Both the position numbers and the translations under genes were made by a program. DNA of 64,000 bases from the NCBI RefSeq assembly GCF_056712565.1, contig NZ_CM160072.1; one strand, written 5' to 3'. Shown in pieces: positions 39,577-40,511 of the stretch. The notes below the pieces were generated by a model. The model was given only the letters and a program-made list of their open reading frames with translations, was not told where the DNA came from and did no database searches. Numbering within the stretch: the stretch's first letter is position 1; every line of letters begins with the position of its first letter.

Positions 39577-40511
39577 TTATTGAGTGACCAGGATTGAATC
39601 GACCAGTTTAAATTCCGGTGCTTTATCCAGCGGGATAACCTTGCCGGATTTCTCAGCGTCAACCATCAGCTTCAGACCCGTTGCACCGATATCCGCCGGG
39701 TTCTGGGCAACCGTCGCGGTCATTTGTCCGGCTTCCACCATTTTGCGGGCTTCCGGAATGCCATCTGTACCGACGACCAACACTTTGCCCGTTTTTCCAG
39801 CGTTTGCGACTGCCTGAGCAACACCCATTGCCATCGTGTCATTCGCGCAATAGATCGCTTTAATATTCGGATTACGTTGCAACACGTTAGTGGCGACATC
39901 CAGTGCTTTAATACGGTCCCAGTCGGCAGGCTGGCTGGCGACAAGCTTGATCTGGCTTGCTTTTTTGAAGGCTTCGGTGGCACCATTACGACGCGCTTCA
40001 CCGGAGGCGTTACCGGCTTTACCCTCAATGATTGCGACTTCACCCCCTTCGGCACCCAGCTTGTCAATAATGAATGACGCGCCTTTCGCCCCGACGGCAA
40101 CATTATCGGTGGTGACAAAACCTTCCACATTACCGCCTGCTTTTTTCAGATTATCCATGTCGATTTTTTCATCGAGATTGACCAGATAAATGCCTTTTTT
40201 CCATGCGCGGGCGACAGGCATGACCAGGTTCACTGAGGATAATGGTGCGAAGGCGATACCTTTGTAATTTTTATTACTGAGATCTTCAAATAACTGCAAT
40301 TGAGATTGAAAATCGCCTTCTGAAGGAGAGGCAAAAATATCAACGCTGACGCCCAGCGTTTTTGCTTCATCTTCAATGCTTTTTTCATATCTACCCAAAA
40401 TGGATTGGAGAGTGTTTTCAATACGACGGCATATTCGGCGGCAGCAAAAGCGCTGGTTGACAACATTAAGCCCACGAGTGTGCCGCTGAAATATTTCAGA
40501 TATTTATTCAT
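39577..40511 (-). pseudogene. alsB: alsB periplasmic D-allose-binding protein disrupted by a -1 frameshift at a homopolymer run (plus 40378-40386)
   Basis: N-terminal ORF reads MNKYLKYFSG..WVDMKK then goes out of frame; the C-terminal 273-aa ORF resumes ..IEDEAKTLGVSVDIF in another frame. Sequence ..ATGAAAAAAGCATTG.. is consistent with loss of one G from AAAAAAGGC. Confidence 0.8.

Follow-up and report, generated by a model that had tools for sequence, protein, structure and literature searches.

The window, by which we mean the whole stretch of DNA analysed here (64,000 nucleotides), carries the D-allose (als) locus. The gene order, from rpiB and alsR through alsBACEK to yjcS, and the location are the same as in E. 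coli K-12, where alsB is b4088 and belongs to the alsRBACEK operon, and in the window the phn operon lies after rpiB. The other genes and features of the locus are given below, where carriers are the genomes that have the one-base alsB deletion.

35340 to 36269, minus strand: alsK, allose kinase, full length, with the lineage substitution R256P
36253 to 36948, minus strand: alsE, allulose-6-phosphate 3-epimerase, full length, with A79V at 36713
36959 to 37939, minus strand: alsC pseudogene, allose ABC permease, with an in-frame stop; annotated by PGAP as 'internal stop' in carriers, UTI89 and ATCC 11775
37694 to 37696, minus strand: codon 82 of alsC, TAG in the window and TCG (Ser) in K-12 and Nissle 1917
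37918 to 39450, minus strand: alsA, ATP-binding subunit, full-length frame, with the lineage substitution R366C
39577 to 40511, minus strand: alsB pseudogene, D-allose periplasmic binding protein, 935 nt compared to 936 in the intact gene; annotated by PGAP as 'frameshifted' in identical records
39577 to 40377, minus strand: 3' remainder of alsB, no longer in the frame of the start codon; would encode AlsB residues 46-311
40230 to 40511, minus strand: truncated frame of 93 codons and a stop, with a signal peptide of 23 residues, then 21 residues of native mature AlsB and 49 that are out of frame
40378 to 40388, minus strand: lesion site, ATGAAAAAAGC, the sole difference from the ATCC 11775 allele
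40379, minus strand: remaining single G of codon 45 (formerly GGC, Gly)
40385 to 40380, minus strand: A6 run, of the same length in the window and ATCC 11775 alleles
40570 to 41460, minus strand: alsR (rpiR), repressor gene, whose protein is identical to that of K-12 and Nissle 1917
41819 to 42268, plus strand: rpiB, allose-6-phosphate / ribose-5-phosphate isomerase B, full length, with the lineage substitutions G27D and S38L

The gene at 39577-40511 was identified as alsB from its sequence identity to characterised AlsB and from its operon position beside rpiB, as seen in the ORF map and in the annotation of the identical and K-12 records. It does not have an uninterrupted frame of 311 codons, as a one-nucleotide deletion leads to a stop after 93 codons, and it is a pseudogene of alsB and not a working member. 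When the minus strand was translated over 39577-40517, the frame that begins with the ATG at 40511 was native from MNKYLKYFSG to NPFWVDMKK and then went out of frame until the stop at 40230-40232, and the remaining AlsB sequence, from IEDEAKTLGVSVD to the terminal ILVTQ, was found in another frame that ends at 39577. This confirms the initial annotation, which had described a -1 frameshift in alsB after WVDMKK with the downstream protein in a different frame, and the alignment with an intact alsB that it had proposed, when run against ATCC 11775, gives a single missing G: ATGAAAAAAGGC has become ATGAAAAAAGC, which is one difference in 936 bases. The placing of the lesion in a homopolymer run holds only in that the lesion adjoins the A6 run; the deleted base came from the two-base GG doublet of codon 45, and the length of the A6 run is unchanged.

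When the missing G is put back a 311-codon frame is restored, and its product matches the protein sequence of PDB entries 1GUB, 1GUD and 1RPJ over mature residues 1-288 with one substitution (E = 3.6e-183). The repaired AlsB is identical to that of Nissle 1917 and is one residue apart (A131G) from that of K-12. Because the match to the crystallised protein extends over the full 288 residues of mature AlsB, it can be said that what the truncated product keeps is the 23-residue signal peptide and only 21 of the mature residues, the frame being broken at codon 45 when compared to K-12 alsB. Judging from the loss of the other 267 of the 288 mature residues, a functional periplasmic allose-binding protein would not be made from this gene.

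Other candidate features within alsB were considered and set aside. A minus-strand ORF at 39577-40398 that starts with TTG could be an internal restart, but it lacks a signal peptide and so it is no substitute for a periplasmic binding protein. The plus-strand ORFs inside alsB, for example that at 39724-40077, have no support and were taken as the usual chance ORFs. A hairpin that resembles a terminator (AACGCTGGGCGTCAGCGTT and then a T-rich tail) also lies inside alsB at 40342-40360, on both strands and 19 nt 3' of the A6 run; it is native alsB sequence, probably of no significance. An Rfam scan of 35000-43000 returned no RNA families, and a scan for promoters and terminators gave promoters at chance level only.

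The transporter carries another lesion, the amber stop at codon 82 of alsC. This alsC pseudogene is present, with the 'internal stop' label in RefSeq, in UTI89, APEC O1, S88 and ATCC 11775, and it resembles the alsB lesion in belonging to the same operon and the same lineage and in being a point lesion that kills one transporter subunit. It differs from the alsB deletion in being a nonsense change (TCG to TAG), older, and about 7-fold more widespread (124 compared to 17 genomes). In Nissle 1917, a B2 strain outside the ST95-like lineage to which these strains belong, every als gene is intact. The genes alsA, alsE and alsK had been called intact in the initial annotation, and their frames are indeed of full length, but the proteins are not unchanged: AlsE A79V, AlsA R366C and AlsK R256P are present, and some carriers have AlsA V114A in addition. 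RpiB has also changed, G27D and S38L being derived on this lineage with no synonymous changes in the gene on the same branch. Allose is needed to relieve the repression of the als operon by AlsR, as reportedly described by Kim et al. in 1997.

The alsB lesion could be an error of sequencing or assembly, the genome truly having GG and an intact 311-codon alsB, and false one-base indels beside homopolymers do arise often on certain sequencing platforms. A search with the 935 bases of alsB gave 100% identity in 17 of 5,426 complete E. coli genomes, and the next-best matches span 936 bases. A 71-base query centred on the lesion gave the same 17 exact matches, and about 1,380 other genomes matched it with the extra base, these exact 71-mer counts being lower bounds. 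The 17 carriers are isolates from human, chicken, duck, pig and dog. PGAP had annotated alsB as 'frameshifted' and alsC as 'internal stop' in each of the four carrier records that were read. The nearest complete genome is NZ_CP098206.1, the dog isolate Z0117EC0054 from South Korea, which has 2 SNPs over 49 kb and is identical to the window over 28000-52000. Among the 63 annotated features that cover the window in Z0117EC0054 only alsB and alsC are flagged as pseudogenes, and no further frameshift is annotated there, from which it follows that the assembly is not generally error-prone.

An identical deletion in 17 separately deposited genomes and its absence from the approximately 1,380 others that match the 71-mer argue against an error, as does the finding that the base was lost from a 2-nt run and not from the A6. 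Moreover, the carriers all belong to a single genetic background and are nested with SNP markers, which random errors would not be. The lesion thus has the marks of a genuine pseudogene in that it is reproducible in independent assemblies and its distribution, seen in nested allele counts, follows genealogy. On these sequence comparisons we regard the alsB deletion as real and inherited, the artefact being effectively excluded; that the window truly has GG is hardly credible, and the homopolymer sequencing error that was raised as an alternative in the initial annotation can be dropped.

The order in which the lesions arose can be read from the alleles that are linked to them. The number of genomes with each allele was as follows.

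alsC TAG at codon 82: 124 genomes
phnO SNP 43681A: 75 genomes, with at least 15 of the 17 carriers among the matches listed; not in UTI89
alsB one-base deletion: 17 genomes
AlsE A79V (36713): 14 genomes, all among the 17 carriers
phnE SNP 50930T: 2 genomes, within those 14
AlsA V114A (39110, alsA codon 114): at least 2 of the 14, namely ZJ3920 and APEC E16002; the window is without V114A

The counts of 124, 75, 17, 14 and 2 nest without conflict, which is as predicted by clonal descent with single origins. The exact context of the alsC TAG was found in 124 genomes that include UTI89, APEC O1, S88 and ATCC 11775, and the annotation of UTI89 and ATCC 11775 has alsC with an internal stop and alsB intact. 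Over 37660-40415 at least 47 non-carrier records, among them APEC O1, S88, IHE3034 and NU14, differ from the window by a 1-nt gap only. The alsC stop was present in all 16 carriers that were checked out of the 17. Because strains with the alsC stop have an intact alsB, the alsC stop came first and is lineage-wide, and the alsB deletion came later in a subclade. AlsE A79V is derived when compared to ATCC 11775, UTI89, Nissle 1917 and K-12, and it is absent from ExPEC XM, PU-1 and FDAARGOS_1298. The earlier description of alsB as a second, independent lesion in the same transporter is therefore right in that the alsC TAG is real and is a separate mutation, but the two are not evolutionarily independent, the alsB deletion having arisen inside the alsC-stop lineage.

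Monophyly of the 17 carriers is supported but not proven by these data, as it is drawn from the nesting of linked alleles and not from a whole-genome tree. Within the window no SNP outside the als operon was found that marks exactly the 17. The phnO allele 43681A marks the larger clade of 75 and 50930T marks 2 genomes only. The pmrB allele 60651T was found in 117 genomes of unrelated backgrounds, a spread that suggests homoplasy or recombination and makes the allele useless for marking a clade. The 60651 T allele leaves PmrB unchanged, the same protein accession being given in UTI89, Z0117EC0054 and Nissle 1917. The phnE SNP at 50930 is common only to the window, Z0117EC0054 and APEC E18055, and these two are on that account the closest relatives of the window.

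Even if the deletion is real, the gene need not be completely silent, and two ways in which alsB could still be expressed were weighed. A -1 slip of the ribosome or of the RNA polymerase on the A6 run would read AAA AAA AGC and give a low level of full-length AlsB with G45S, and the peptide expected from such leaky frameshifting across the site is the one ending in WVDMKKSIEDEAK. A -1 shift at the second AAA does restore the native frame exactly (AAA AAA AGC AUU), the A_AAA tetramer is in phase, and there is the hairpin downstream (40360-40342). However, by the motif rules of PMC4066793 the zero frame, AUG AAA AAA GCA, has only A_AAA in phase, an in-phase X_XXY_YYZ heptamer is absent, and G_AAA_AAA is not a canonical heptamer. 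In the same study unstimulated tetramer motifs shifted at about 0.15% compared to a background of 0.11%, and of the six tetramers that responded A_AA.A gave the least shifting, even when a strong pseudoknot was present (PMC4066793). There is no stimulatory structure a few nucleotides downstream of the run in alsB; the nearest hairpin begins 19 nt past it and Rfam gave none in the locus. A hairpin that stimulates -1 frameshifting usually lies 5-9 nt downstream, and transcriptional slippage in E. coli needs runs of roughly 9 bases, so the spacing in alsB is longer than usual and A6 is shorter than such runs. Both the run and the hairpin are native and are also found in intact alleles, and the frameshifted arrangement is not conserved, being in 17 genomes against about 1,380 with the in-frame allele by the 71-mer; alsC is null anyway. 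Slippage rescue on the A6 run is thus very unlikely, and so is a leaky or recoded alsB. A phase-variable site that toggles reversibly between ON and OFF would also produce a one-base change in a short repeat beside an A-run. But the altered tract is just GG to G, A6 is constant, and there is no long simple-sequence tract; none of the 14 genomes that have AlsE A79V has reverted, and the deletion is distributed in a strictly nested and not a patchy way, all of which makes a switch extremely improbable.

The question that is left is why alsB was lost in these strains. The simplest way in which codon 45 could have lost one G of its GG is an error of replication, and the shift of frame would end translation after 93 residues with 21 of the 288 mature residues kept. 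The deletion appears to have arisen once, in a subclade of the ST95-like ExPEC/APEC lineage in which the allose ABC transporter would already have been disabled by the amber stop in codon 82 of alsC. Without a permease alsB would have had no role that selection could maintain, and the deletion would have been effectively neutral and have spread by clonal descent. Decay then seems to have gone on, with AlsE A79V and later AlsA V114A in nested subclades. The approximately 650 nt of untranslated alsB mRNA might in addition cause a Rho-dependent polar drop in the expression of alsACEK. We therefore consider it very probable that alsB is a vertically inherited pseudogene which records how a transporter already dead by the alsC stop went on decaying neutrally, step by step.

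Since the alsC stop the als genes have, in the records that were read directly, undergone three changes that alter protein (the alsB frameshift, AlsE A79V and AlsA V114A) and one that is synonymous (alsA codon 272, in E18055); the ratio of 3:1 is roughly what unconstrained mutation would give, though the numbers are tiny. Substitutions were also compared by polarising the differences between the window and Nissle 1917 with K-12 as outgroup in 37 genes. On the ST95 branch alsBACEK had 4 synonymous and 4 nonsynonymous changes compared to 147:25 in the flanking genes (Fisher p = 0.024), where these control genes hold recombinant-looking tracts rich in synonymous changes. The intact operon of the Nissle branch gave 6:5 for alsBACEK compared to 135:38 in the flanking genes (p = 0.13), a ratio similar to that on the ST95 branch. 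Since the same excess is seen on the intact Nissle branch and the controls are inflated by the synonymous-rich tracts, these ratios were not used as evidence either way.

The operon itself is dispensable in the species: alsB is absent from 2,031 of the 5,426 complete genomes and the whole operon has been reported as missing from EAEC 042 (PMC2808357), E. coli W (PMC3032704) and PCN033 (PMC4578781). In all, about 37% of E. coli genomes lack the als operon. For 042 the inability to use allose comes from Biolog measurements (PMC2808357), for W it was reported (PMC3032704), and for PCN033 it is only a prediction from the missing genes (PMC4578781). These strains are like those with the window allele in having lost the allose pathway, but in them the whole locus is gone whereas in the window it is kept and is decaying gene by gene.

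The contrary explanation is that the loss was adaptive, that is, expression of AlsB or uptake of allose or some other substrate by AlsBAC was costly in the ExPEC/APEC niche and the transporter was knocked out twice. Two of the three transporter genes are dead while the catabolic genes keep their frames, and loss of the als operon is frequent in E. coli (PMC2808357, PMC3032704, PMC4578781). In addition, a study that links sugar transporters to the entry of aminoglycosides found that overexpression of several carbohydrate transporters makes cells more susceptible to these drugs and that tobramycin lowers the expression of AlsABC, but AlsBACE could not be cloned there and was not among the transporters tested (PMC12412646). 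The alsC stop alone should abolish transport and the alsB hit would then add no transport phenotype. The deletion is found in just 17 of the 124 alsC-stop genomes and it is not recurrent, being one haplotype with a nested distribution, and with AlsR repressing the operon when allose is absent the cost of an idle alsB should be small. Adaptive loss is for these reasons unlikely. It is distinctly improbable that the stepwise knock-outs reflect selection against the allose transporter in the extraintestinal or avian niche and not neutral decay; if they did, a harmful compound, for example an aminoglycoside, might enter through AlsB or AlsBAC, or these might be a target of phage or of immunity, and the alsB deletion would mark a step of adaptation in a subclade found in several host species. 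To return to neutral decay, a relaxed-selection hit in an already broken transporter does not strengthen the case for selection against the uptake of allose, which is not required to account for it. The suggestion of relaxed or negative selection in the initial annotation therefore stands in its first part, relaxed selection being the best reading, and does not gain from alsB as a second hit in its other part.

The alsB lesion is already known in so far as it is annotated in RefSeq records, and we did not find a published description of the alsB and alsC lesions in the literature on ST95 or UTI89 with allose. What is added here is small, namely the order alsC stop, alsB deletion, AlsE A79V, AlsA V114A, which is useful as a nested lineage marker. 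The alsC stop, the alsB deletion and AlsE A79V give simple nested markers for an ST95-like ExPEC/APEC subclade of humans, poultry, ducks, pigs and dogs. For annotation and metabolic models, strains of this lineage should probably be scored as unable to import D-allose via AlsBAC, even though 5 of the 7 genes of the als locus look intact from their sequence. The locus is a tidy case of a dispensable operon that decays one gene at a time after a first disabling hit, with little beyond bookkeeping to be gained from it. A comparable case in the same 64-kb neighbourhood is phnE of K-12, a known pseudogene that is frameshifted by an 8-bp insertion (an 8-nt gap in the alignment) and that is likewise the permease gene of an ABC system for the uptake of a dispensable nutrient; unlike in K-12, phnE is intact in the window (about 50793-51572, minus strand).

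Some other differences were seen in the vicinity. Over the 49 kb compared, the window and NZ_CP098206.1 differ only at 57450 and 61889. The carrier APEC E16002 has a 10-bp deletion in phnP at the equivalent of 42856-42865, annotated as 'frameshifted', which is absent from the window. In fdhF (about 25688-27835, minus strand), annotated as selenocysteine-containing in the matching record, the in-frame TGA is recoded and is not a lesion. Finally, in the spacer between alsR and rpiB the A-run at 41537-41543 is A7 in the window, ATCC 11775 and Z0117EC0054 and A8 in UTI89 and ZJ3920; it sits in the divergent promoter region, and the difference in length may be real or an assembly artefact.
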